From the NCBI GenBank assembly GCA_003516025.1, contig CP023991.1, positions 180,001 through 212,000 of the forward strand: a stretch of DNA of 32,000 nucleotides, read 5' to 3'. The notes below the pieces were generated by a model. The model ran no database searches and was not told where the DNA came from. It saw nothing but the letters and a program-made list of their open reading frames with translations. Positions within the stretch are counted from its first letter, which is position 1. Every line of letters starts with the position of its first letter. Position numbers and translations under genes: made by a program. The DNA is from Candidatus Saccharimonadota bacterium. Its GTDB lineage: Bacteria; Patescibacteriota; Saccharimonadia; Saccharimonadales; UBA4665. Positions 4,072 to 22,036 of this stretch are shown here, piece after piece.

Positions 4072-4583
4072 GCTGTTGCCGCGGCGCCGGCGGGAACAGT
4101 TTCAAGCAGTTCGTTAATTATAATTTTTTTAGGTGTGATCTCGTGAATCTGCGTTCGGTCAATGCTTAAATTTCCACCCGTGAAGCTTTTGAGTATGGAC
4201 TGTGAAACATACAGTTTTTGGATAAACATCGTCGTGGCTTCAAGCGCGTAGTCGTTAACCTTGCCCACTTTTTCCTGATTAACCGTTTCAACTGGCTTGC
4301 CGATAAGTTCGAATTTAAGCTCTATCACGTCACGCAAACGGATTAACTCTTCTGCGGAAACAAGCACGTCATGGTCGTCAATAACGAGACCTTGCGGCAA
4401 CACGTCTCGTATGTCCTGGTACAGTAAGATCAATTGTTGCTTATCCACGTTATCCTGGCAGTAGAACCCTTCAATTTTTAAATTATCCGGATTAATGATC
4501 GGTCCGGTAATTTCCGCTACAGGCGTACCGGTACGAAGTGACAGTACTGATTTATCAAGAATGGTTTCGGCCAGTTGGAGCAT
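4068..4583 (-). CDS. PRC-barrel domain protein (two PRC-like repeats)
   Basis: Two repeats of the pattern hydrophobic-x-G-x-VGxV-D-hydrophobic...I (SLRTGTPVAEITGPIINPDNLKIEGF and IGKPVETVNQEKVGKVNDYALEATT). The track start at 4631 is TTG, so the ATG at 4583 (MLQLAET) is preferred. Confidence 0.5.
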   Translation of the reverse strand: MLQLAETILDKSVLSLRTGTPVAEITGPIINPDNLKIEGFYCQDNVDKQQLILLYQDIRDVLPQGLVIDDHDVLVSAEELIRLRDVIELKFELIGKPVETVNQEKVGKVNDYALEATTMFIQKLYVSQSILKSFTGGNLSIDRTQIHEITPKKIIINELLETVPAGAAATA

Positions 4584-4711
4584 ACCCACAGTATATACCG
4601 CGCCCGGCGGCTCCAAAAGAATCTGCCTCAACTATTAACAGCTGCTGTCATAGAATCCGATTGATTATGCTGTAGCTTGCAACCACAAATCTCCATTCCT
4701 AGAATGGCAAT

Positions 4712-6145
4712 ATGTATCGAGGGAATCATTTATTTCGGACGGTGGCAAGCGTACTACTGGCGCTCCTCGTAGTCTTGTCGTCGAGGGCGGTCTACGCTAC
4801 CGCAGAACCCAGTATCGAGGCGCCCAGTGGTCTGACGCTGACACAAATCAAGATGACTGGGGATGAATTTCTGGTCGTACGAAACAACACCATGTCTACT
4901 ATCGCCAATTTAAGTAGCTACTGGCTGTACTACTATAACAACGTAAATCCTTTGGCCAGCGGCGTAAGCAACTCGTCACAGCAATTACCTGCGGGCTCGC
5001 TCGGCAGTGGCCAAAGCCTCTTATTGAGCGCTAACGGTATGGCAACTTGCGGCGCGGCAATCGCAGGCAAGTTAAATCTCGGCCTCGGTGATAGCGGTGG
5101 TTTTATACAGCTGGCCCAAACGAGTATGCAGAATGGGGCAGTAAGACAGGAAGTGCTTGATACTGTCTCGTGGAGTTCAACGGCGAGTGGCGGCATCAGC
5201 AATGTTCCTACGTCTACTAAGGCTCCGAACGCTGTCTGGTACCGCTACTCCACTCAGGACTCCGCAGGCGGATACGGATGGCAGCAGGCCGAGCTGGTTG
5301 CTACGGAAGCTTGCGTCTATAGTGTGGGGGCAGGAAGTGAAAACGTGCAACGCATTGATACTGAGCAGTTTGCCGAGGCAAGTAGCGTGCCGCCCGTGCA
5401 GATTATATCTATGGATGATGGTTCTGCATCAGGTGTAACAGGCGCCTTTATCCCGGATCGTGACCGTGGCTTGCAGGCACCGCTTATCAACGAACTTCTG
5501 CCCAATCCTGCCAGCCCCGCGAGTGATGACGCGGATGAATTTATTGAACTCTACAACCCTAATGACGCGATATTCGATCTCTCAGGATTTATGCTGCAAG
5601 TCGCCTCCACGACATCAGCCTCAGCCAAAACCTATAGTTTCCCAACTGGTACTCTGCTTGCCGCCCGCGGGTTTACTGCCTTTCGATCGTCGAATACGCA
5701 TATTAGTATGAGCAATAGTGGTGGCCAGGTGTGGCTACTAGACCCCTTCGCGAATGTCATTGGGCAGTCTACCCCGTACGGTACTGCCAAGGATGGCCAG
5801 GTGTGGGCATTAGCTAACGGCAAGTGGGCGTGGACCACCGAAGCTACCCCCGATAAATCTAATATTATTAAAGTACCACCGACGACCACTAAAAAATCAA
5901 CTAAAACTACGGTTTCTACAAAGACTGCGGGCTCAACGGCGGGTGCTTCAAAAACCACACAGACGGCCCAGTCTCCCAGCGCTCATTTCGAAGAAGATGC
6001 GGCAACTTCCAAAATTCATATTTACGTACTTGCTGCCGTAGCTATTCTCGCGGTACTATACGGTGCGTATGAGTACCGACATGACATTCTCAATCGAATC
6101 CACAAGTTTAGAAGAAACCGAGCAGTTCGCCAGCTCGCTCGGTAA
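4712..6145 (+). CDS. Secreted, membrane-anchored lamin-tail-domain (LTD) protein
   Basis: It has an N-terminal signal peptide (LLALLVVLSSRAVYA) and the LTD signature INELLPNPASPASDDADEFIELYNPNDAIFDLSGFML, plus a weaker N-terminal LTD-like copy. A Thr/Ser/Lys-rich linker and a C-terminal TM helix (IYVLAAVAILAVLYGAY) complete the protein. Confidence 0.75.
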   Translation: MYRGNHLFRTVASVLLALLVVLSSRAVYATAEPSIEAPSGLTLTQIKMTGDEFLVVRNNTMSTIANLSSYWLYYYNNVNPLASGVSNSSQQLPAGSLGSGQSLLLSANGMATCGAAIAGKLNLGLGDSGGFIQLAQTSMQNGAVRQEVLDTVSWSSTASGGISNVPTSTKAPNAVWYRYSTQDSAGGYGWQQAELVATEACVYSVGAGSENVQRIDTEQFAEASSVPPVQIISMDDGSASGVTGAFIPDRDRGLQAPLINELLPNPASPASDDADEFIELYNPNDAIFDLSGFMLQVASTTSASAKTYSFPTGTLLAARGFTAFRSSNTHISMSNSGGQVWLLDPFANVIGQSTPYGTAKDGQVWALANGKWAWTTEATPDKSNIIKVPPTTTKKSTKTTVSTKTAGSTAGASKTTQTAQSPSAHFEEDAATSKIHIYVLAAVAILAVLYGAYEYRHDILNRIHKFRRNRAVRQLAR

Positions 6146-6539
6146 TAAGTTGCGCGGCGGCGAGGTAATCGTGCTAAGCAGCGATCTCGGCGGTGGCAAA
6201 ACTGCTTTTGTGCGTGGACTGGCCCGCGGCATGGGCAGTACGGACCATGTCAGCAGCCCAACGTTTACTGTCAGCCGGGAATACAGGGCAGGAAACTTGG
6301 TACTCTATCACTTTGACTTTTACCGTCTGCAGGAACCCGGCGTTATCGCGGCCGAGCTGGAAGAGTTTCTTCATGACACGGCAGCGGTGGTAGCTATAGA
6401 GTGGGGCGTTATAGTTGAAGGTATCCTGCCAGACGATAAAGTTATTATTACTATTATGCGGACCGGCGAAAATGAGCGTCGCCTTACTTTCAGTTATCCC
6501 GAAACATTGCGTTACTTATTCCCGGAGCAAGCCGCATGA
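6081..6539 (+). CDS. tsaE: tRNA t6A37 biosynthesis ATPase TsaE (YjeE)
   Basis: GGEVIVLSSDLGGGKTAFVRGLARGMG...VSSPTFTVSREY...LYHFDFYRL matches the TsaE P-loop and SPTF motifs. The track start at 6063 is GTG; ATGs occur at 6069 and 6081. Any of these starts overlaps the 3' end of the LTD gene. Confidence 0.85.
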   Translation: MTFSIESTSLEETEQFASSLGNKLRGGEVIVLSSDLGGGKTAFVRGLARGMGSTDHVSSPTFTVSREYRAGNLVLYHFDFYRLQEPGVIAAELEEFLHDTAAVVAIEWGVIVEGILPDDKVIITIMRTGENERRLTFSYPETLRYLFPEQAA

Positions 6540-10003: not shown

Positions 10004-11656
<1,653 letters not shown>

Positions 11657-11906: not shown

Positions 11907-12497
11907 CTATAATTTCTTTTTGTTTAGTATCTGGTAAACGCGCGGTATGGATATATCAAACTCGGTAGATATGGCAGTGGCGCTCAAACCCTTTTTGTCG
12001 GCCTCCAATACTTTACGCTTTAATTCCTTCGCGTCCTTGTAAGTAATGCGCTGGAGGCCTCCTAAATCGTTCTGAAGGGGTTTTATAAGCGTGGAATAAT
12101 ACTTCTCTACGAACATCAATATTTCATTCTTTGTAGCGTCAGGGGCAATGCTGAGCGTAATACCGCCATGCCCAAGGGATGCATAGGCCCGATATAATTC
12201 TTCTGGCTCATCGCTCGGCTCAACTGTCTTATGATAGTGAGATACAACCTCCACTGGGCTGCTTATTAAGTGCTCGTTAATCTCGCCTGTTTTGATAAGG
12301 TGATGAATTACCCCTGAGAATGTAATCGGTAGGCCATAGTCCCGTAGGATAAACAATACCTCTCCTGAAAGTAGGAAAGTCTTTCTTCCTTCGTATTCGC
12401 GTAATCGCTCTATCTCATTCTTGAATTTTTCAGTTTCAAGTAATTGCCGGAGTTTTGTGAGGCTCGCCTCGTTACGTGATTTACTCTCTTGCGCCAT
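11907..12497 (-). CDS. Hypothetical protein with a C-terminal helix-turn-helix
   Basis: 196 aa. The C-terminus, KGLSATAISTEFDISIPRVYQILNKKK, resembles a resolvase or sigma70-region-4 type HTH. It is divergent from the next gene across a 48-bp spacer. Confidence 0.45.
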   Translation of the reverse strand: MAQESKSRNEASLTKLRQLLETEKFKNEIERLREYEGRKTFLLSGEVLFILRDYGLPITFSGVIHHLIKTGEINEHLISSPVEVVSHYHKTVEPSDEPEELYRAYASLGHGGITLSIAPDATKNEILMFVEKYYSTLIKPLQNDLGGLQRITYKDAKELKRKVLEADKKGLSATAISTEFDISIPRVYQILNKKKL

Positions 12498-12545: not shown

Positions 12546-12923
12546 ATGCCAAGGAAAACACTACCTACCACTGAAAATGAAGTCATATCGCTCATACTAG
12601 CCCGGGAGAAGTATGCAGATATCGCGGTAAAGACAGGCGTGCCCGCTTCGACGATAAAGAAAATAAAGCGTAGAAACTATGAGCAGTTCGAAACCCTTGA
12701 ATCCGAAGCGACCATTGAGCGGTTAGAGAGCATCAACACCTTAGTTAAGAGAGCAAACTTACAGATAAGCAAGGTATTCGATAAGGCGGAGCGAGGAGAG
12801 GTAGAGCTTACTGTCCATGAGTTAGTGATCGTTTCAAAAGAGATGTACAAACAGAGCACCATTAACTCATCACCTCTCAGCCCCGCCCGCCGGCTACAAG
12901 AACTAGCTAGAAAGTACCTATAG
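12546..12923 (+). CDS. Hypothetical protein with an N-terminal helix-turn-helix
   Basis: 125 aa. The HTH-like segment is YADIAVKTGVPASTIKKIKRRN, and the remainder is helical. Confidence 0.45.
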   Translation: MPRKTLPTTENEVISLILAREKYADIAVKTGVPASTIKKIKRRNYEQFETLESEATIERLESINTLVKRANLQISKVFDKAERGEVELTVHELVIVSKEMYKQSTINSSPLSPARRLQELARKYL

Positions 12924-13028: not shown

Positions 13029-13232
13029 TATAATGTCGGCATGTGGTTTTACCACTAGACCTAGAGCCACGCGCAAGCGAAGGTATGGTCAAAAATCCAT
13101 CGAGAAGTTTAAGCTCGTCGTCAGAGCCTTCTTCTCGATGGTTGCAACTGGAAACGGTTGTAGGTGCTTCGGCATCGCTGGCGGCGAGCTTTTTTGTTTG
13201 CCTCCATTTAATAACTCAAAAAGGAGGCATGC
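13029..13232 (+). promoter_or_regulatory. Candidate promoter plus structured 5' leader with an SD-sequestering hairpin
   Basis: TATAAT at 13029-13034. A perfect 11-bp stem pairs 13097-13107 with 13131-13141. A UUCG-tetraloop hairpin sits at 13163-13176 and a T-run at 13190-13195. The anti-SD TGCCTCC (13199-13205) is complementary to GGAGGCA (13223-13229), which contains the SD of the downstream ORF. Confidence 0.35.
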
Positions 13233-13478: not shown

Positions 13479-13596
13479 AAAACTCAATATGTTATAATAT
13501 ACTTTTTAACAGGGGTGGAGGAGTTATGCGAGTTTACTTGACAGGTAAGGTTACGCTTAAAATATGACACTGGCCCCTGTTAGGGGTATGCGTACA

Positions 13597-13621
13597 ACAT
13601 AGATTGTGCGACATAGATTGT
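13597..13621 (+). repeat. Tandem direct repeat ACATAGATTGT x2 (period 14 bp), candidate operator
   Basis: Exact 11-mers at 13597-13607 and 13611-13621, located about 115 nt upstream of the first cassette gene. Confidence 0.5.
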
Positions 13622-13735: not shown

Positions 13736-14287
13736 ATGAACGAACAAAGGGCCGACATACTAATAATGTTGTTGTACGCTAGGGGATCCAGCGGAAAGCT
13801 TGGCGAGCCTATTACTGGCGTTACTCGTTTAAACAAACTATTATTCCTGTTAGAAAAAGAAGCAGGCGATAACTATAAAGGATTCGAGTTTACGCCTTAC
13901 AAAATGGGTCCATATTCATCTCAGATAAATCCTGTTCTTGAGTTCCTGACTACTTTTCCAGACCCCAAAAATCCCTTAGTTGAGCTTAAAGAAGGACACG
14001 TACAATCCGGCACAAATGTAGAACAGAGCCAATATATTGAAGACCTTGCCAGCTCTGAGGACAAATCTGTTGAACTGAATAAATACAATACGGCAACGTT
14101 TAACCTTACCGAGCAAGGCAAAAGGTTGGCTGAGGAAATCTGGAGAGCAGCGCCAGCAGATGTTAAACAGAGTGTAGAAAAAGTAAAGCAAAAGTATACT
14201 CCACTAACGCTGAAGGATCTTTTGCGGTATGTATATAGTGCTTATCCAGAGATGACAGTTAAATCTATAATTAAAGACACCCTTTAA
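13736..14287 (+). CDS. Winged-helix protein resembling Panacea/SocA (DUF4065)-type antitoxin N-domains
   Basis: The segment ILIMLLYARG...ITGVTRLNKLLFLLEKEAG...FEFTPYKMGPYSSQINPVLEFL follows the T-x-L-x-K-L-L...F...GP-x-S pattern of that family. The assignment is by eye only. Confidence 0.4.
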   Translation: MNEQRADILIMLLYARGSSGKLGEPITGVTRLNKLLFLLEKEAGDNYKGFEFTPYKMGPYSSQINPVLEFLTTFPDPKNPLVELKEGHVQSGTNVEQSQYIEDLASSEDKSVELNKYNTATFNLTEQGKRLAEEIWRAAPADVKQSVEKVKQKYTPLTLKDLLRYVYSAYPEMTVKSIIKDTL

Positions 14288-14295
14288 ATATTTAT

Positions 14296-14919
14296 ATGTT
14301 CGTAGAAGAACTTATCAAAGATATAAATCAGGTAAACCCCCTAATTTGGTTCGGAGTGCCATTGGCCTTATTTGGCGCCTCAGCGAGGCTACTACTCAAA
14401 TTTAACAAAACGCACCATACCGATAAGGTTAACATTATCGATAAATACGATGCAGAAAACTTTAACAACGTAATAAAACCCTTATACGCTACTATTAATA
14501 ATCTACTTTTAGAAAAAACCTTATCTTTAGGCCAAGGGCCGACCACAAAGTCACCGACGCACGTAAAAGAATACGAAGAGAGGAAAAAGACTCTGCTCAA
14601 GGATGAGGACTTCAGCTTGCTAGAAGAGTCGATTGAATTCACCGAGCTTCAAGATCAAATTATCACTTCACGGAGAAACAAGTACGATTATAATGGGACT
14701 TATAAGCATACAAGACGATTGTTGATTTACGGCATGGTAGCTGGTTTTGTACATGCTGTTATTGCCGCACTATTCTTTATTTATCAACAGGTACAATACT
14801 CAGATTTTTGGAGTAAGTTTTTTGTTGCAGCTTGGGCCGTGGTATTCCTAGTAGATATAGTGCTTGTGGTACTCTATGTTAAGAACGAGAGCAAAATGGA
14901 TGGGTACATAGATGCTTAG
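14296..14919 (+). CDS. Membrane protein (1 N-terminal and 2 C-terminal TM helices)
   Basis: TM segments are LIWFGVPLALFGASARLLL, LLIYGMVAGFVHAVIAALFFIY and FFVAAWAVVFLVDIVLVVLYV, with a charged soluble middle region. It starts 9 nt after the previous gene and overlaps the next by 8 nt. Confidence 0.65.
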   Translation: MFVEELIKDINQVNPLIWFGVPLALFGASARLLLKFNKTHHTDKVNIIDKYDAENFNNVIKPLYATINNLLLEKTLSLGQGPTTKSPTHVKEYEERKKTLLKDEDFSLLEESIEFTELQDQIITSRRNKYDYNGTYKHTRRLLIYGMVAGFVHAVIAALFFIYQQVQYSDFWSKFFVAAWAVVFLVDIVLVVLYVKNESKMDGYIDA

Positions 14920-15328
14920 CGAAAAGCAGATAGAAGATATCCTCACGAAAGGTCTGATAGATAGCCGGCGCTACAATCTTGCCCTAAATCAAGTGTATGT
15001 CGCTGGAAAAAGAATAGATATTGTTCTTAAAACCAATGATAATGAACTCATAGCCATCGAAGTAAAGATTAAGGATTGGAAGACCGCTCTTAGGCAAGCC
15101 AATTTAAACCAATTTGCAGTTGATAAATCTTACGTTGCTTTGTGTTCGCGTTATGCTATGCCCGCCATAAACAATATATCTAGGTTTGCGAGTAATGGTG
15201 TGGGACTAATGATAATAAGCCCAGATAACACTTTCAAAATCGTTTTGCCTCCTAAGGTCACAAACGACTCAATATCGAATACATACAAAAATAACCTTTT
15301 ATCATCTTTATCGCTTTCAATGGCTTAG
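14912..15328 (+). CDS. PD-(D/E)xK (restriction-endonuclease fold) nuclease-like protein
   Basis: GKRIDIVLKTNDNELIAIEVKIKDWKTALRQA gives D36 ... E50-V-K52 followed by a conserved Q, as in NucS/Hjc/Mrr-type catalytic cores (nt 15017-15067). Confidence 0.6.
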   Translation: MLSEKQIEDILTKGLIDSRRYNLALNQVYVAGKRIDIVLKTNDNELIAIEVKIKDWKTALRQANLNQFAVDKSYVALCSRYAMPAINNISRFASNGVGLMIISPDNTFKIVLPPKVTNDSISNTYKNNLLSSLSLSMA

Positions 15329-15338
15329 AATATAACTT

Positions 15339-16631
15339 ATGAGTAAAGACTCACTCTTCATCAGATTTGGCCTTCATAAGGACAGGGATACCCTCAAACT
15401 TACTAAAGAGCTATATTGCGGTATCGTCGTGCCTGCTCATATTCTTTCGTATTCCCCTGATGCGACTATCGCGGCTATTAATCATATAGATCACGATTAT
15501 TTCATAGATCCGATGACTTATATATTTACAGCAGAAACCATACGCTACTATCTTACGGAAGTACCAGACAAAGAGAAAAAGAATAAGAGTCTCGGCTTTA
15601 AGCCTTCAATTAAAAAAATGGCCGTCAATTACGGTATCCTTGATTATTTTGACTCAAAAGGATTTGCTGCCTTGACCGCGGCAGAAGCTAAGGCCCTAGT
15701 TCCTGATTTGGCACAAAAAAGTGTCCAGCTTCAAATGACAAAAGTCGATTCTGGATTTGCGGCTGCCTTGAAAAAGTACTCTGAAATTTTGAAATTGCCT
15801 CAAAAAAATCAGACTCCTATATTTATTACTTCGCCCTATTTCTTTTTTGATGATGACAAGTCAAAAGAATGGTTACAAGTTAATATTGATTTCGCCAATG
15901 AGACAAAAAAAATTGTAGAAAAAATGGATCCCGCCCTAGCCGTAGTTCCTATATTACTCGCACCATCTAAAATGTTTACCGAAAAGTTACTTACAGACTT
16001 TCAAGGACATAAGAAGCTAATCGTATGGCCGAGTGATATCGATGAATGTAGTCCAGTCGTTGGGGGAGGAGAAGCTAAACTAAAGGCCTTACGCTCTTTT
16101 GTAGTGACAGCAAAAAGCAAAGGTGTAAGTGTTTTAAGTTTATATGGTTCTTATTTTTCCGTATCAATGCATAAGCTTGGTGTGGATGAGGTAGCTAATG
16201 GTATCTTCTACGGTGAGCATAAAAATTACAAAGCTAAGGTAGGAGGTGGTGGCCCTGTATCACGTTATTATATCAACCATCTACACAAGTTCTTCACCAT
16301 TCCAGTGGCAATACGTTTATTTCAAAAGCATCCTAGCTTGATGCAGTTTGAACCGCAGGCGACCTTAGACTTGATTAAGAATAATCCTGCAAATATAGCG
16401 GAATTCGATACTAAACCTGAGCTTGCTCAAGAGCACTTTCTCGAATCACGACGTATGGAATATGATTATGTGAAAAGCCATTCCTTACAGGAGATAGTCG
16501 AAGAACTCAAGGATGCATACAAAGCATACTCTCCACTGCCAGATACTATTATCGATGAAGATTTAGGTTATTTAAAAGTTTGGGCAAATGTCCTACAAGG
16601 TGAGGACGATAAGTCACCCGAAGATAAATGA
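15339..16631 (+). CDS. Hypothetical protein, 430 aa, no recognisable motif
   Basis: A long uninterrupted ORF in the cassette frame context. Its TGA overlaps the ATG of the next gene (ATGA). It has Gly-rich patches (VVGGGEAKL, KVGGGGPVSRYY) but no Walker A. Confidence 0.75.
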   Translation: MSKDSLFIRFGLHKDRDTLKLTKELYCGIVVPAHILSYSPDATIAAINHIDHDYFIDPMTYIFTAETIRYYLTEVPDKEKKNKSLGFKPSIKKMAVNYGILDYFDSKGFAALTAAEAKALVPDLAQKSVQLQMTKVDSGFAAALKKYSEILKLPQKNQTPIFITSPYFFFDDDKSKEWLQVNIDFANETKKIVEKMDPALAVVPILLAPSKMFTEKLLTDFQGHKKLIVWPSDIDECSPVVGGGEAKLKALRSFVVTAKSKGVSVLSLYGSYFSVSMHKLGVDEVANGIFYGEHKNYKAKVGGGGPVSRYYINHLHKFFTIPVAIRLFQKHPSLMQFEPQATLDLIKNNPANIAEFDTKPELAQEHFLESRRMEYDYVKSHSLQEIVEELKDAYKAYSPLPDTIIDEDLGYLKVWANVLQGEDDKSPEDK

Positions 16632-17764
16632 TTCACAAATATCTCCAGGATCCTGAATATTACGAAGACTCATATGACCGGATCACAGTAGATGCAGGAC
16701 GACGACATCAGGTGTCGTTCGAAAAGATTTATAACGATCTCTTTGAAAAATTTAATGATGAAGATCCTAAAAGTCCCCGGAGTGTATTGCATTTCAATAT
16801 TCTTTATATGGCAATCGTAGGTAGCGAGCTGCTTGACCGTTACGACCAACGAGAAGAGCGTATACGTGAGATGATGGCCGAAGACGAAGCTAAGGACGCG
16901 AGATTACGAAACGCCCGCCTACAGACAGAGCCTTTGTGTCAACATTGCGGCAACAAGGGTCTTCGAATAATTTATAAGAGTTTTATGCATCGTGGCAGTA
17001 GTCGAAAATATACAGATAGGGAAGAAGTGCTGTTTATGCTCGAATGTATCCACTGCGAAAAGAGAAGTGCATATTGGGAAGACGGTAGCACGTGGGAGCA
17101 TCTTGCGGTGTCTTGTCCTAAGTGCAGCGCTGATATGGTGGAGAAGGGCAGCCATGGCGAGAAAGTGGTTACAACTACTTATACATGCCCGGATTGCGGC
17201 CACAGCTACAAGGATAAGCTCGACCTTAGGCCTAAAAAGCAAAAGAGTGATCCTGAGTATGAAAGTGACCAGATACTTTTTTGTCTGCAAGATGAAAAAA
17301 TAAGAACTGAAATGAGAGACTCTCGTCGCCGCTTTGAAGAAATGGCGCGACTTGGTAAAGAAATGAAAGAGAGGGAAGAGAACAAACATGTTTATGATGC
17401 CATAGCTTCTATTAAGAAGCCGAAAATTGCTGAGCTTGTCACTATACTGGCTCCAGTTTTTAAAAAGGCTGGTTATATTGAGCTGAGTCTGGATAAACCA
17501 GAGCTAGGTCGTGATGTAGTCGTTGGTTTTAACTGCCTCGATAGTAAACCGAGTCGAGATGATTACGAAAGCAGAAAGACCCTTAGAACGACGGTTGATA
17601 AGGTACTACAAAACACAAATTGGCGACTTATGAGCGACGGTATATCTTATCGGTTAGGTTATTTAAGTGGTAGGCTAAAGGCATACGAGGGAGAGAATGC
17701 TTTAAAGTCGCTCGTCACGAAAGGAGACAAGCAATATAATAAAATTGTTAAGGAGGCGGAATGA
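16628..17764 (+). CDS. Hypothetical protein with two tandem CxxC...CxxC zinc ribbons
   Basis: C104QHC...C140IHC and C163PKC...C187PDC (nt 16937-17197). The flanking regions are charged and helical. It has ATGA overlaps on both sides. Confidence 0.75.
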   Translation: MIHKYLQDPEYYEDSYDRITVDAGRRHQVSFEKIYNDLFEKFNDEDPKSPRSVLHFNILYMAIVGSELLDRYDQREERIREMMAEDEAKDARLRNARLQTEPLCQHCGNKGLRIIYKSFMHRGSSRKYTDREEVLFMLECIHCEKRSAYWEDGSTWEHLAVSCPKCSADMVEKGSHGEKVVTTTYTCPDCGHSYKDKLDLRPKKQKSDPEYESDQILFCLQDEKIRTEMRDSRRRFEEMARLGKEMKEREENKHVYDAIASIKKPKIAELVTILAPVFKKAGYIELSLDKPELGRDVVVGFNCLDSKPSRDDYESRKTLRTTVDKVLQNTNWRLMSDGISYRLGYLSGRLKAYEGENALKSLVTKGDKQYNKIVKEAE

Positions 17765-18045
17765 AAAAATACGATGAAGTTTTGATAGGACAGCGTAGAT
17801 GTATAATCGCTAGTGTTATTGATGAAACCCATTTCAAAGTGGTCTATAAGAGCGACAAGGGTGAGCCATTAATGGACGACGCGCAACTGGTGGAAGGCAA
17901 GTTACAATTTAGCAATCCGTCACCTTTCAGCAGTGACAGAGTGCCGGGTGGAGCACTGTACGAACATGCAGTATCTTTGTTGATGCGGCCTGAAATCTGG
18001 GCCAACATAGAACACAAAAAAAGATTGAACGAAAAAGACACTTAA
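17761..18045 (+). CDS. Small hypothetical protein (94 aa)
   Basis: A strong SD, AAGGAGG, lies just upstream, and it has an ATGA overlap with the preceding gene. No motif was recognised. Confidence 0.6.
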   Translation: MKKYDEVLIGQRRCIIASVIDETHFKVVYKSDKGEPLMDDAQLVEGKLQFSNPSPFSSDRVPGGALYEHAVSLLMRPEIWANIEHKKRLNEKDT

Positions 18046-18060
18046 CTACGCCTTAATGTT

Positions 18061-18948
18061 ATGCCTGTACTATCCCTGAAACCGAAGTGGCATCCAGAGA
18101 CGATCATTGTCCAAGCTTCAAGCGATGATATTGAGCGTCTAAGAAAAGGCTTTCCTCCTCTTGGGGAAGGTGATCGAATAACTAAGCTATCTGAAAAGTT
18201 CTATCACTTGTCACCGCCAGCTACAAAGACTATGGTGCCACGTCTATATGAAGTTATTTTATTGCGCGATTTGGACTTAACTAGAGAATCTGTGCGGACA
18301 GAGGAGATTGATGACTTCGAGCAAAGCGCCACATTTTATGAGTTTGTTGCTAAAAGCAAAATTAAGATAGTTGAAGATAACTATTCGTTTATTAAAAATC
18401 AATTGCTGTACAAAGCGTTTTACATGATTGAATCGAAGCTACGTATTACAGCTATGTCTCAAGATGAGATTATGCAATATGTACCAATCAGCCCTCGAAC
18501 TAAAGGCTTTGATCATAAGGTCGCAACTTTTACTTTTAGTGAGTTATACGAACAATTACTTTTGTCGCCAGCATCGGATAAATATATTATCGCAAAATGG
18601 AATAGTTATAATAGTGACCCAGCTGAGCTTCTTAAATTAAAGTCGTCCACAACTAAGATTGAAGAGCTTAATTTCCCTCTTAAAATTGACGAACTAAACA
18701 AGTTAAGAAAAATCAGAAACAATTGCATGCATTTTAGGGTAACCACGTTAGGGGACTATGGTGACGCTATTACTATGATAAATCGGTATTTGATAGATAA
18801 GGACAGAAAAATGCTAGCTAGTGGCTTAGGACAAGCTCTAAAGCCATATCAAAATGCTCTCAAAGCCTCACAAGATAAATTCAATGAATTACTTGAGGAG
18901 CAAAAAAGGATATTTAGTATGTTACGTGGTGACGCGACCGATACTTAG
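18061..18948 (+). CDS. HEPN-domain protein (Abi_2/Swt1-like RNxxxH motif), putative RNase
   Basis: The C-terminal helical domain contains LNKLRKIRNNCMHF, giving R219-N-N-C-M-H224 (nt 18715-18732). This is the R-x4-H HEPN catalytic signature in its (I/L)RNxxxH form. Confidence 0.65.
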   Translation: MPVLSLKPKWHPETIIVQASSDDIERLRKGFPPLGEGDRITKLSEKFYHLSPPATKTMVPRLYEVILLRDLDLTRESVRTEEIDDFEQSATFYEFVAKSKIKIVEDNYSFIKNQLLYKAFYMIESKLRITAMSQDEIMQYVPISPRTKGFDHKVATFTFSELYEQLLLSPASDKYIIAKWNSYNSDPAELLKLKSSTTKIEELNFPLKIDELNKLRKIRNNCMHFRVTTLGDYGDAITMINRYLIDKDRKMLASGLGQALKPYQNALKASQDKFNELLEEQKRIFSMLRGDATDT

Positions 18949-18971
18949 GTGTAAACACTGTCGAGTCATCC

Positions 18972-19583
18972 ATGTATAATCCGAATATGAGTCTAATAAT
19001 TGTTGAGGTAGTAGAGGAAGGGATTCTATTCTCTGCAGATAAACGTATTACTTGTGTGGACAATAATACTTACGAGGACAACTGCACAAAGGCATTCCCT
19101 TTGAAGGGGCGGATTGTCGGTGGTGTGGTAGGTAGAAATGTTGATAACCCTGATGTATATCGTAATGAGTTAGATGGGCAGCCGGATAATTTGGCTGATA
19201 AGACGGTATATGATTGTGCTAAATAGGCAGCTGAAACCATTGCGGCCCTTAGTGACCCTGACGATAATCCGCCTCAGATGAGGTTAATTGTATCCGGATA
19301 CGACAGTGACACACCTATGATATACGAGGTTAACATTACAGCTACGGTAGATATAATCGTAAATCGTAGCCCATACTTCTCAACAAATGACCCTATATCT
19401 TATGAGATTACTAATGAGGGTTTGAATGTGGTGCGAAAACATCCCTATAACAAGACAACTTGTGACGAAGCGCTAAAAAATCATAAAAGCCGCATTAAAG
19501 AAGCGGCGGCTGAAAACGTAACCATAAGCGAAGAGTTTAATAGCTATCTCATTAAGCCAGATGGTATAACTGTACTTCGCTAA
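18972..19583 (+). pseudogene. Proteasome/HslV-like Ntn-hydrolase homologue interrupted by an in-frame TAG
   Basis: ORFs 18972-19226 and 19278-19583 share one frame, and the only stop between them is TAG at 19224-19226. M-SLIIVEVVEEGILFSADKRIT...TKAF gives Ser1/Asp17/Lys34, equivalent to the proteasome Thr1/Asp17/Lys33. The second half, LIVSGYDSDTPMIYEVN, resembles the beta-subunit core. Confidence 0.6.
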
Positions 19584-19699: not shown

Positions 19700-21301
19700 C
19701 TAATTAAGCCCAAGCTTTTTACTGCGAGTATCAGAGTTATAGGCCAGAAGATCATACCGTTCATTAAATAGCTTCTTTAAAACTCTGATAGTAATCTGTA
19801 GCGACTGATTGTAGAACTCTGCAACTTCCTTCCAATTGTAGTGGCGTGAGCCATGAACGATGTCGCTCCTACGTGTATATAGGTCGCTCACCTGATTAAA
19901 AATAAGTTGCTTTTCGGCTTCGTTATCACCTAAGAGTTTACTGATAGATAATGCAATTCTGAATTTTACCTCTCCGTTGTTAGTGCCAAAAAGATTTTCC
20001 CAAATTATGACAAAATCAATGAAGCTGTCGGTGATATCGGTTCGTCTTACAGCGCTCGCTAAGCGACGGAACGATATAATTACTCTTTTATACTGATGAC
20101 TTGCTACAACGCGGGCAAGTTGCTCAATGGAAGTTATTTCCTCATCCGTAAGCGAATCATTAATCATGTATTGATTAGCCAACGGGTACGACATGGATTC
20201 ACCGTTCTGAAATGGTGGGATTAATTTCGATGCTAGAGGAAAAATTCTTAAAGTTTTATTAAGGGCCAATTGTGGCAATGCAGAAATAATAGCAAGCTTC
20301 TCCTCAGTTTCTACATCACTTTGATTACCTGCTTGTGTGAATGGTATAGAAGACAAGTCGCTACTAACGGTCATCTTCATTCCGAACTTACTCTCAAATA
20401 CAACGTCTACTTCGTAGCTTTCATTTCTAAATGGAGGTTTCAACCATATCTTTTCAACATCGCGAGCCTTGCGCAGTGTACCCCAAACTGTCGTTATGCT
20501 TTGCTCATCAGTTAGGTGGAGTCCGCTAACCACAGTAATAAGCGGAACGTCCCTCTGTTCGCCATTTATCAGCTTTTTTAATAGCTCTACATTTTTCAAG
20601 CATTCGTTAACGAACTCTTGGCATGTGAATTGTCCCTTTGTTACTGACAGCATAGCAAAAGTCTGTTTTATTACCCCGTATGCAAACATACTTGCTTGGG
20701 CTACGCTACCATTCCCAGAGTTAAATCCATGTATTACGTAAGCTCTAGTATTCTCTGTAGTATCACCCTGTGCTGGGAATAAACGCGAGAGAGTTACATC
20801 TATAGGTAGTAGCTCAATAAGTTCGGCGTTAACTGGATGGTTATGACTAAATGCACGCTCATAATATGAAAGATGTGACATGGGTATAGATTGGTCACTC
20901 CTAGTTTCATTAGGTTGGGCGGGTAATAAATAAAACGGATAGGCATCACGCGCCAAAGTTGCAAGTCTTTTTGCAATAGGATCGCGACGCCTAGTTTCAT
21001 AAAATGTACCGCCAGCTATTTCTCTAATTTGATTAAGTGTAATTGTGTCTGTAAATCTGTGCTCGTAATCTGTTAAAAATCCCACCAGACCGAATCGAAT
21101 ATCTTCTAGCGAGCTATCTGCATTATAAATTCTAGAAGCACAGGCGATAAGCACCCTAAGTGCTGCTTCTTTTTCGGACGCCAACGGTCTAGTTTCTTCA
21201 ATCCTATCTTGGAGTTCTTGCGTGCTTAAGTTGCAAGCATATTCAGTAAAGGGCCTACCTGTTATTGTCAGCAATGTTCCTAACGTTATTTGCTCGTACA
21301 T
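19700..21301 (-). CDS. Large HEPN-domain protein (C-terminal RSxxxHG motif), N-terminal region unknown
   Basis: 533 aa. The C-terminal ~130 aa are helical and contain LYTRRSDIVHGS, giving R478-S-D-I-V-H483 (nt 19853-19870), as in Apea/MAE-type HEPN domains. It is convergent with the cassette. Confidence 0.7.
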   Translation of the reverse strand: MYEQITLGTLLTITGRPFTEYACNLSTQELQDRIEETRPLASEKEAALRVLIACASRIYNADSSLEDIRFGLVGFLTDYEHRFTDTITLNQIREIAGGTFYETRRRDPIAKRLATLARDAYPFYLLPAQPNETRSDQSIPMSHLSYYERAFSHNHPVNAELIELLPIDVTLSRLFPAQGDTTENTRAYVIHGFNSGNGSVAQASMFAYGVIKQTFAMLSVTKGQFTCQEFVNECLKNVELLKKLINGEQRDVPLITVVSGLHLTDEQSITTVWGTLRKARDVEKIWLKPPFRNESYEVDVVFESKFGMKMTVSSDLSSIPFTQAGNQSDVETEEKLAIISALPQLALNKTLRIFPLASKLIPPFQNGESMSYPLANQYMINDSLTDEEITSIEQLARVVASHQYKRVIISFRRLASAVRRTDITDSFIDFVIIWENLFGTNNGEVKFRIALSISKLLGDNEAEKQLIFNQVSDLYTRRSDIVHGSRHYNWKEVAEFYNQSLQITIRVLKKLFNERYDLLAYNSDTRSKKLGLN

Positions 21302-21960: not shown

Positions 21961-22036
21961 CAGGGTGTAGCGCAGTTGGTAGCGCGCAGCGTTCGGGACG
22001 CTGAGGTCGGAGGTTCAAGTCCTCTCACCCTGACCA
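21961..22036 (+). tRNA. tRNA-Pro (anticodon CGG), CCA encoded
   Basis: Hand-folded, 76 nt. Acceptor CAGGGTG/CACCCTG, D arm GCGC-AGTTGGTA-GCGC, anticodon arm CAGCG-TTCGGGA-CGCTG, T arm GGAGG-TTCAAGT-CCTCT, discriminator A, then CCA. Confidence 0.9.

Follow-up and report, generated by a model that had tools for sequence, protein, structure and literature searches.

The question raised by positions 13736–19583 of the 32,000-nucleotide (nt) window analyzed here (the stretch from 180,001 to 212,000 on the forward strand of contig CP023991.1, assembly GCA_003516025.1, from a Candidatus Saccharimonadota bacterium) is whether the eight closely packed genes that it contains, designated g1 to g8, constitute a single defense system. 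This had been proposed in a preliminary description made from the letters of the DNA, which drew attention to the packing of the genes, their defense-type domains and their location on an AT-rich mobile island. The eight plus-strand open reading frames (ORFs), their coordinates and their tight spacing and overlaps were all reproduced, but genes crowded together on an island need not form a system, and four of the eight in the cassette are unrelated cargo. The region appears instead to be composite: g1–g4 are probably an unnamed module of toxin-antitoxin type, with a role in abortive defense or addiction, and the remaining genes are independent cargo. Profile databases (Pfam, NCBIfam r20 of June 2026, PHROGs and PADLOC-DB v2) yielded no more than weak or partial matches, and the argument is developed largely from comparisons of gene order, family conservation and predicted structure.

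The family of g4 provides the means of defining the module. A single-sequence search with g4 retrieved 21 relatives and a profile search 1103 cluster representatives, which should be read as a lower bound on the size of the family. Genomic contexts were taken from exact-protein look-ups, two plasmids, 34 loci drawn from one genome per species and two fusion loci, giving about 40 non-redundant loci with a g4 homolog, in which homologs of the cassette genes were sought by tblastn and jackhmmer. In essentially every one of these loci that is of sufficient extent, the order g1-(slot)-g3-g4 is kept, the slot being usually filled by a membrane protein of the g2 type, and a g1 homolog is found upstream of the g4 homolog in 37 loci. 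No homolog of g5, g6, g7, g8 or the 533-residue HEPN gene that converges on the cassette was found in them, and clustering of all neighboring ORFs disclosed no further recurrent family beside g1–g4. The conserved co-occurrence that the preliminary description had suggested looking for is present across about 40 loci for the first four genes and absent for the last four. In a related Saccharibacterium, the tRNA-Pro(UGG) site is likewise occupied by an island, the sister island L003, and the TsaD/RNase Y/YmdB flank is shared; its g1–g4 are 75–82% identical to those of the window, but its recombinase is only 32% identical and all of the genes downstream of g4 are different, so that either the module or the recombinase must have been exchanged between islands at the same tRNA-Pro site. 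Two family members, P0223 (560 residues) and P0279 (557 residues), are natural g3::g4 fusions (E values for the nuclease part of 9e-36 and 3e-32, respectively), and their loci retain the upstream g1 and membrane protein genes. As judged from these sequence comparisons, g1–g4 (13736–16631) are one discrete, horizontally mobile module, while g5–g8, like the convergent HEPN gene, are cargo independent of it that accumulated on the same tRNA-Pro integrative island.

The distribution of the module is wide. It is carried by the plasmids pSI-1 of Arthrobacter and pNG400 of Haloarcula, and the 34 one-genome-per-species loci come from Planctomycetota, Bdellovibrionales, Campylobacterales, Wolfe- and Woesebacteria, Gemmatimonadales and Acidobacteriaceae, among others, and from archaeal hosts that include Methanoperedens, Thor- and Bathyarchaeota and Thermoplasmata. 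In several loci it adjoins integrases or recombinases, and several loci are on chromosomes and lack mobile-element genes in their surroundings (L135, for instance, is next to the his operon). A defense-island-like context is seen in L009 (10067–17281), a distant locus carried by a conjugative element, where the module lies directly beside a cluster of genes encoding an SNF2 helicase, a DUF4391 protein, an N6/N4 methyltransferase and a ResIII/RE endonuclease. An Elusimicrobia locus (L046, 6172–8308 and 8729–10339) has no separate g3 that could be found between a g1-like gene of greater length (270 residues) and g4; g4 is followed there by a DUF6119 gene of the same family as one located after g5 in locus L011, though g5 and the module are otherwise unlinked.

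The first gene of the module had been described as a winged helix-turn-helix protein, a label that can now be refined to a SocA/Panacea-type protein. Fourteen of the 36 members of the g1 family match Pfam SocA_Panacea (PF13274; best E 1.6e-5), and the Haloarcula homolog carries the annotation of a SocA-domain antitoxin; g1 of the window itself matches only the N-terminal part of the PADLOC model PDC-M19A (E 4e-12) and the C-terminal region of DarG (E 1e-5). The second gene occupies a variable position. The three-transmembrane character ascribed to g2 is borne out by hydrophobic segments at residues 16–34, 141–159 and 171–189, and in about 30 loci the slot gene encodes a protein of about 200 residues whose single N-terminal and paired C-terminal helices repeat this topology with almost no remaining sequence similarity. 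In the Thermoplasmata locus L037, the slot contains a PIN domain (E 1.5e-11). Six loci have nothing in the slot; five of them (L028, L035, L036, L040 and L043) have instead a gene assigned to SIR2 after g4. Four of these five genes match Pfam SIR2_2 (PF13289), three of them above threshold and that of L036 just under the cut-off, and the same four match the PADLOC SIR2 and Aga_SIR2 models (E 1e-12 to 6e-16); the fifth copy, in L028, is truncated by a contig edge and has no Pfam match. A constant core accompanied by interchangeable membrane, RNase and NADase effectors is a pattern of abortive-infection and toxin-antitoxin systems, and it is on this basis that g1–g4 are read as a conflict module. 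The defense-type reading of the preliminary description survives for these four genes, which are unnamed, self-contained and combine an antitoxin-type protein with a switching effector, but not for the cassette as a whole.

The two most constant partners of g1 are a small nuclease and the signature protein of the module. The assignment of g3 as PD-(D/E)xK-like is sustained by the invariance of Asp36, Glu50 and Lys52, together with Glu4 and Gln62, in 39 homologs; by its catalytic motif, g3 is placed in the PD-(D/E)xK nuclease superfamily, and it has sub-threshold matches to MTES_1575, HSDR_N, Mrr_cat_2, PDDEXK_4/9, NERD and Cas4, as well as a weak match to NucS. The g4 protein, previously listed as a 430-residue unknown, is more difficult to place by sequence. 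None of 110 family members matches a Pfam model even at E ≤ 10, members from six lineages gave no match in NCBIfam or PADLOC, and profiles built from 21 and 149 sequences found no match among PDB sequences. However, 138 of 167 members contain a CxCxxC motif, followed 16–40 residues later by a His in 148 of 149 aligned members, a combination that is the zinc signature of the tRNA-guanine transglycosylases (TGTs). A structural model was generated for P0016, a Cys-bearing family member, in addition to that for g4 of the window. The P0016 model, built from a 110-sequence alignment, has a predicted local distance difference test score (pLDDT) of 95.6. In a Foldseek search of the PDB, it gave 79 matches with E ≤ 1e-3, and the top 50 were all TGTs (from Zymomonas mobilis, mouse and Thermotoga maritima), with E values of 6e-7 to 1e-5 and TM-scores of 0.44–0.57. 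In the better of two hhalign comparisons, which is of low probability and colinear with Escherichia coli Tgt, the CxCxxC and His residues fall on Cys302, Cys304, Cys307 and His333, and the sequence LYGGYFS falls on the Tgt YLMGVG strand. The structural matches of P0016, the zinc motif and the colinear alignment together place the g4 family, at the level of the predicted fold, in the TGT/DpdA superfamily. Members of the clade of the window retain Asp57, Ser90, Gln132, Pro166-Tyr167-Phe168, Trp230, Glu236 and Glu293, and also Arg309, Tyr311, His366, Glu374 and Trp415.

It should be recognized that a number of observations weigh against parts of this interpretation. The TGT assignment derives solely from the model of P0016, the homolog with the zinc motif, and not from that of g4 itself; the latter is TIM-barrel-like (AlphaFold, pLDDT 88) but retrieved only generic TIM barrels from the PDB by Foldseek and a mixed list from viral structures, in which 2 of the top ten were annotated as TGT. 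The zinc Cys positions are occupied in g4 of the window by Phe337, Pro339 and Thr342, only His366 being left, and the clade from the candidate phyla radiation to which it belongs, lacking all three cysteines, has possibly decayed or changed in function. The hhalign comparisons are weak, with probabilities of 1.4% for E. coli Tgt and 5% for a six-sequence Tgt alignment; identity between g4 and the TGTs is about 11–12%, and a DSGG-type motif is unrecognizable. When the Z. mobilis catalytic aspartates Asp102 and Asp280 are taken as the reference, Glu293 (Glu or Asp in 122 of 149 sequences) aligns with the nucleophile, but in the low-probability hhalign alignment only, and the near-invariant Asp57 (146 of 149) does not align there with the Asp of the DSGG motif. 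With regard to the toxin-antitoxin character of the module, g1 of the window alone falls below every SocA_Panacea threshold, and in the SIR2 variants the effector is located after g4 and not next to g1, which is a poorer fit to a simple pairing of PanA and toxin. Lastly, the nearest neighbors of the module are heterogeneous, including integrases (5 of 133), scattered matches to restriction-modification (RM), DISARM- or BREX-like and PDC genes, and also housekeeping genes, so that the defense-island argument, being drawn from a census of neighbors, is qualitative only.

A mechanism that would accommodate the four genes can be outlined. The g3 and g4 proteins might act jointly on nucleic acid, the TGT-fold part binding or flipping a guanine-type base and the nuclease cutting, and the pair could be either the sensor of the module or its first line of restriction. 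The g1 protein would restrain the neighboring toxic effector, in the manner of the PanA antitoxins, until infection or loss of the element frees it; in the present case, membrane damage by g2 would then lead to growth arrest or death. Coupling of the g3/g4 pair to the g1/effector pair is a proposed link. A more specific form of this scheme, in which g1–g4 are an undescribed, widespread anti-phage system whose TGT-fold/nuclease pair, fused or separate, reads guanine-type bases in invading nucleic acid and then cuts it or triggers a Panacea-guarded membrane, PIN or SIR2 effector, can be put forward only tentatively; the bases read by such a system might be modified ones, for example those of 7-deazaguanine-modified phage DNA.

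The preliminary description had found no named system to accommodate the cassette, and this stands: no PADLOC or NCBIfam model places the gene set, the only match being that of g1 to the N-terminal part of PDC-M19A. PADLOC gave no match for g2, g4, g6, g7 or g8 and weak, sub-threshold matches for g3 and g5 (E 0.003 or worse), and module homologs from other phyla were likewise assigned to no named system by PADLOC or NCBIfam. A literature search on PDC-M19, on SocA with TGT and on TGT-like defense systems found nothing relevant. The closest parallels are partial. PanA antitoxins neutralize toxins of the membrane and RNase kinds that are encoded beside them (Kurata et al. 2022, PMC8832971), and the module resembles the PanAT pairs in that g1 is of the Panacea family and lies directly beside a variable membrane or PIN toxin-like gene, these being the two toxin classes validated for PanT; it differs in comprising four genes, of which g3 and g4 are more constant than the toxin slot, and in the separation of the SIR2-variant effector from g1. 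The survey that described the PanAT pairs left out operons of more than three genes (PMC8832971), which would explain why the g1–g4 module was not reported there. In type IV cyclic oligonucleotide-based anti-phage signaling systems (CBASS), the TGT fold of Cap10 is remodeled to bind a deazaguanylated protein N terminus (Wassarman et al. 2025, bioRxiv 10.1101/2025.04.06.647259). Cap10 resembles the predicted g4 protein in being built on a remodeled TGT fold; it is essential, in a capacity unrelated to tRNA, to an anti-phage system whose effector is toxic, and it sets a precedent for the binding of a protein or ligand, instead of tRNA, by such a fold. In contrast to type IV CBASS, the module has no CD-NTase, QueC-like Cap9 or cyclic-nucleotide effector, and the PADLOC CBASS models were negative. 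Bacterial and eukaryotic TGT/QTRT enzymes share with the g4 family a TIM barrel and a C-terminal zinc subdomain, but in the g4 family a Glu that is largely conserved appears to stand in for the nucleophilic Asp, and the clade of the window is without the zinc cysteines. The combination of a constant core with alternative membrane or SIR2 effectors is shared with Thoeris, CBASS and the short prokaryotic Argonautes, from which the module differs in that its core is unrelated to the TIR, CD-NTase and Argonaute sensors and includes neither a signaling-nucleotide synthase nor a nucleoside triphosphatase.

Other explanations of the same genes can be weighed against the view that g1–g4 are a conflict module of toxin-antitoxin type. 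The reading nearest to it is that they serve addiction only, as a PanA-PanT pair of plasmids and islands to which two accessory genes are added, and have no part in defense against phages. A Panacea-type g1 beside a membrane or PIN toxin-like gene, and the presence of the module on plasmids and integrative islands, would accord with this, as would the accessory nucleases and modification enzymes that the PanAT survey found beside some pairs. Those accessory genes were present in a small fraction of genomes (PMC8832971), whereas in the module g3 and g4 are the most constant genes and the toxin is the variable one; in addition, several chromosomal loci, including L135, have no mobile-element genes near them, and the defense-type SIR2 effectors argue for an immune role. 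Restriction of the module to addiction therefore appears rather doubtful, but the two roles are compatible, and addiction alone and defense are inseparable from sequence alone. It is unlikely, on present evidence, that the module is an RM-like system of the Dpd type, in which g4 would exchange guanine in host DNA for a modified base, DNA lacking this base would be cut by g3, and transcription would be under the control of g1. Such DpdA-based DNA modification systems exist, and there is a likeness to Dpd (PMC10164549) and phage DpdA: the g4 family has the predicted TGT/DpdA fold and a role apparently beyond tRNA modification, in a context of conflict, and its partner, in some cases within a single fused protein, is a PD-(D/E)xK nuclease. 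However, g4 matches no TGT, DpdA, other Pfam or PADLOC model, clustering of neighbor families revealed neither a conserved DpdB- or DpdC-like partner nor dpdD–K genes, and tblastn with E. coli queries, to which the sensitivity of the search is limited, found no match to QueC, QueD, QueE, QueA or Tgt at E ≤ 0.01 in the 568 kb of 43 module loci. The exchange of membrane, PIN and SIR2 effectors and an antitoxin-type g1 are foreign to RM systems, and the fusion of nuclease and modifier has no separate specificity or ATPase subunit; it is the effector swapping, the nature of g1 and the missing precursor genes that make this reading the less likely one.

A function in the housekeeping of mobile elements (replication, transfer or control of integration), as opposed to conflict, would explain why the module is often directly beside integrase or recombinase genes and, in L009 and L003, near conjugation genes. 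It is highly improbable in view of the chromosomal contexts that are without such genes, the absence of the module from phage collections, and the fact that SIR2, PIN and membrane toxins are not enzymes of element maintenance. A phage origin of g4 or g5 was rejected as well, neither having a match among GenBank phages or in IMG/VR. The proposal from which this analysis started, that all eight genes form one novel multi-gene defense system, has in its favor the tight co-directional packing, with 4-nt overlaps at g4/g5 and g5/g6, and the lack of any terminator signal above chance between the genes. It is nevertheless barely credible, given that g5–g8 accompany g1–g4 in 0 of about 40 loci and are missing from the sister island, that the homologs of g5 and g7 have unrelated neighbors, and that g8 is interrupted by a stop codon.

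The cargo genes differ greatly from each other in distribution. The two zinc ribbons attributed to g5 are supported by four invariant CxxC pairs, and this protein has at least 807 homologs at 53–64% identity, with a mean column identity of 69% and a highly conserved C-terminal half. There are 384 relatives in metagenomes, and 80 metagenome loci (L051–L130) differ almost every time in their neighbors on both sides; the relatives never adjoin g6–g8, and none was found in IMG/VR or among GenBank phages. The families that recur near g5 are one of about 454 residues (14 loci), probably the ParB-N6/N4 methyltransferase of L011 and L013, and one of about 539 residues (10 loci), probably DUF6119; serine recombinases also recur loosely. 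By its sequence context, g5 is an independent gene tied to mobile elements or hotspots, and it may be either a marker of a hypervariable cargo hotspot or a core gene of Saccharibacteria integrative elements. Homologs of g6 were found only within assemblies of the same organism, and g6 has no family match in Pfam, NCBIfam, PHROG or PADLOC; it was considered as a conserved partner of g5 and rejected, as it is not kept downstream of g5 elsewhere. The RNNCMH motif reported for g7 (Arg219 to His224) is maintained as RN[NS]CMH in its only four relatives, but g7 matches no HEPN profile in Pfam, NCBIfam, PHROG or PADLOC, and the HEPN designation is thus one made by motif only. In L131 a relative has GmrSD_N and HEPN_RiboL-PSP genes as neighbors, and in L132 one stands by itself; they occur without g8, which was rejected on this account as a partner of g7. 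The proteasome-like Ntn (N-terminal nucleophile) hydrolase label of g8 is close to being upheld by a match to Pfam Proteasome (E 1.6e-4), whose 21.8 bits narrowly miss the cut-off, 22.4, but the ORF is interrupted by a TAG codon that recurs identically in two further, independent assemblies from this organism (L001 and L002); no homolog was found on plasmids. The convergent gene encodes a 533-residue protein with weak matches to Pfam HEPN_RiboL-PSP (E 0.018) and phrog_28161 (E 5.5e-5) and a C-terminal RRSDIVH motif, and has no homolog in the related loci.

The AT-rich mobile island of the preliminary description is confirmed by its low GC content (0.37–0.45, compared with about 0.52 in the flanks and about 0.53 past tRNA-Pro(CGG)), by a tRNA-Pro gene at each boundary and by a large serine recombinase (Table 1). 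The two tRNA genes are 79% identical to each other, and apart from this likeness a repeat search found no att-type direct repeats at the ends of the island, whose flanks encode MurT/GatD, RNase Y and YmdB. The recombinase ORF overlaps a tRNA gene on the opposite strand in three islands, those of the window, L003 (recombinase 4467–6167, tRNA-Pro 4448–4524) and L017 (11471–13198, tRNA-Lys 13134–13209), which suggests that integration occurs at the 3' end of the tRNA gene and that the recombinase gene is the outermost gene of the element. The recombinase is separated from the module by a divergent pair of small genes (11907–12497, minus strand, and 12546–12923, plus strand), of which one encodes a 196-residue protein with a C-terminal helix-turn-helix (HTH), as indicated by weak Cbp1-like and PHROG HTH matches; the pair, which is not conserved in L003, probably represents island regulators or an excisionase. 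A 14-nt tandem repeat upstream of g1 is a possible operator of the module; a third, similar copy is present at 20186–20199, within the 533-residue gene. The junctions from g1 to g8 are +8, -8, +10, -4, -4, +15 and +23 nt, and a scan for promoters and terminators within the cassette gave nothing above chance. The observation that the cargo proteins have no Walker A motif was extended by a search for GxxxxGK[ST], which was negative for all proteins of the island.

Table 1. Features of the island and its gene cassette, in window coordinates
Feature	Coordinates	Strand	Description
Large serine recombinase	10004-11656	-	Pfam Resolvase (4.7e-26), Recombinase and Zn_ribbon_recom; 3' end of ORF overlaps tRNA-Pro(UGG)
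tRNA-Pro(UGG)	10013-10088	+	ARAGORN; left island boundary
Tandem 14-nt repeat, GTACAACATAGATT / GTGCGACATAGATT	13592-13619		About 120 nt upstream of g1
g1	13736-14287	+	SocA/Panacea (DUF4065)-type antitoxin-like protein; opens the conserved module
g2	14296-14919	+	Protein with three transmembrane helices, the first N-terminal and the others C-terminal; occupies the variable effector slot
g3	14912-15328	+	Small PD-(D/E)xK nuclease, by motif
g4	15339-16631	+	TIM-barrel protein with a predicted, divergent tRNA-guanine-transglycosylase fold; the module's signature gene
g5	16628-17764	+	Double zinc-ribbon protein of a Saccharibacteria/Patescibacteria family; outside the g1–g4 module
g6	17761-18045	+	94-residue ORF; 4-nt overlap with the g5 stop; no family match
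g7	18061-18948	+	295-residue protein with HEPN-type RNxxxH motif; rare, solitary cargo gene
g8	18972-19583	+	Proteasome/Ntn-hydrolase-like, with in-frame TAG at 19224-19226; probable pseudogene
533-residue convergent gene	19700-21301	-	Weak C-terminal HEPN (RiboL-PSP-like) signal; separate cargo
tRNA-Pro(CGG)	21961-22036	+	ARAGORN; right island boundary

One outcome of the analysis is a large protein family (at least 1100 clusters at 50% identity) for which there is no Pfam, NCBIfam or PADLOC model, and the association of its predicted TGT fold with a nuclease raises the idea of a base-reading restriction or sensor enzyme. The independent g5 family could in turn anchor the mining of the poorly known genomes of Saccharibacteria for mobile cargo. 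Should g1–g4 be an immune or addiction system, they would represent a new family with a clear architecture and would extend the reuse in immunity of folds from the queuosine pathway, those of TGT and QueC; and if the more tentative view of the module as an anti-phage system is true, the tRNA-guanine transglycosylase fold would have been recruited independently to immunity for a third time, after DpdA and Cap10.

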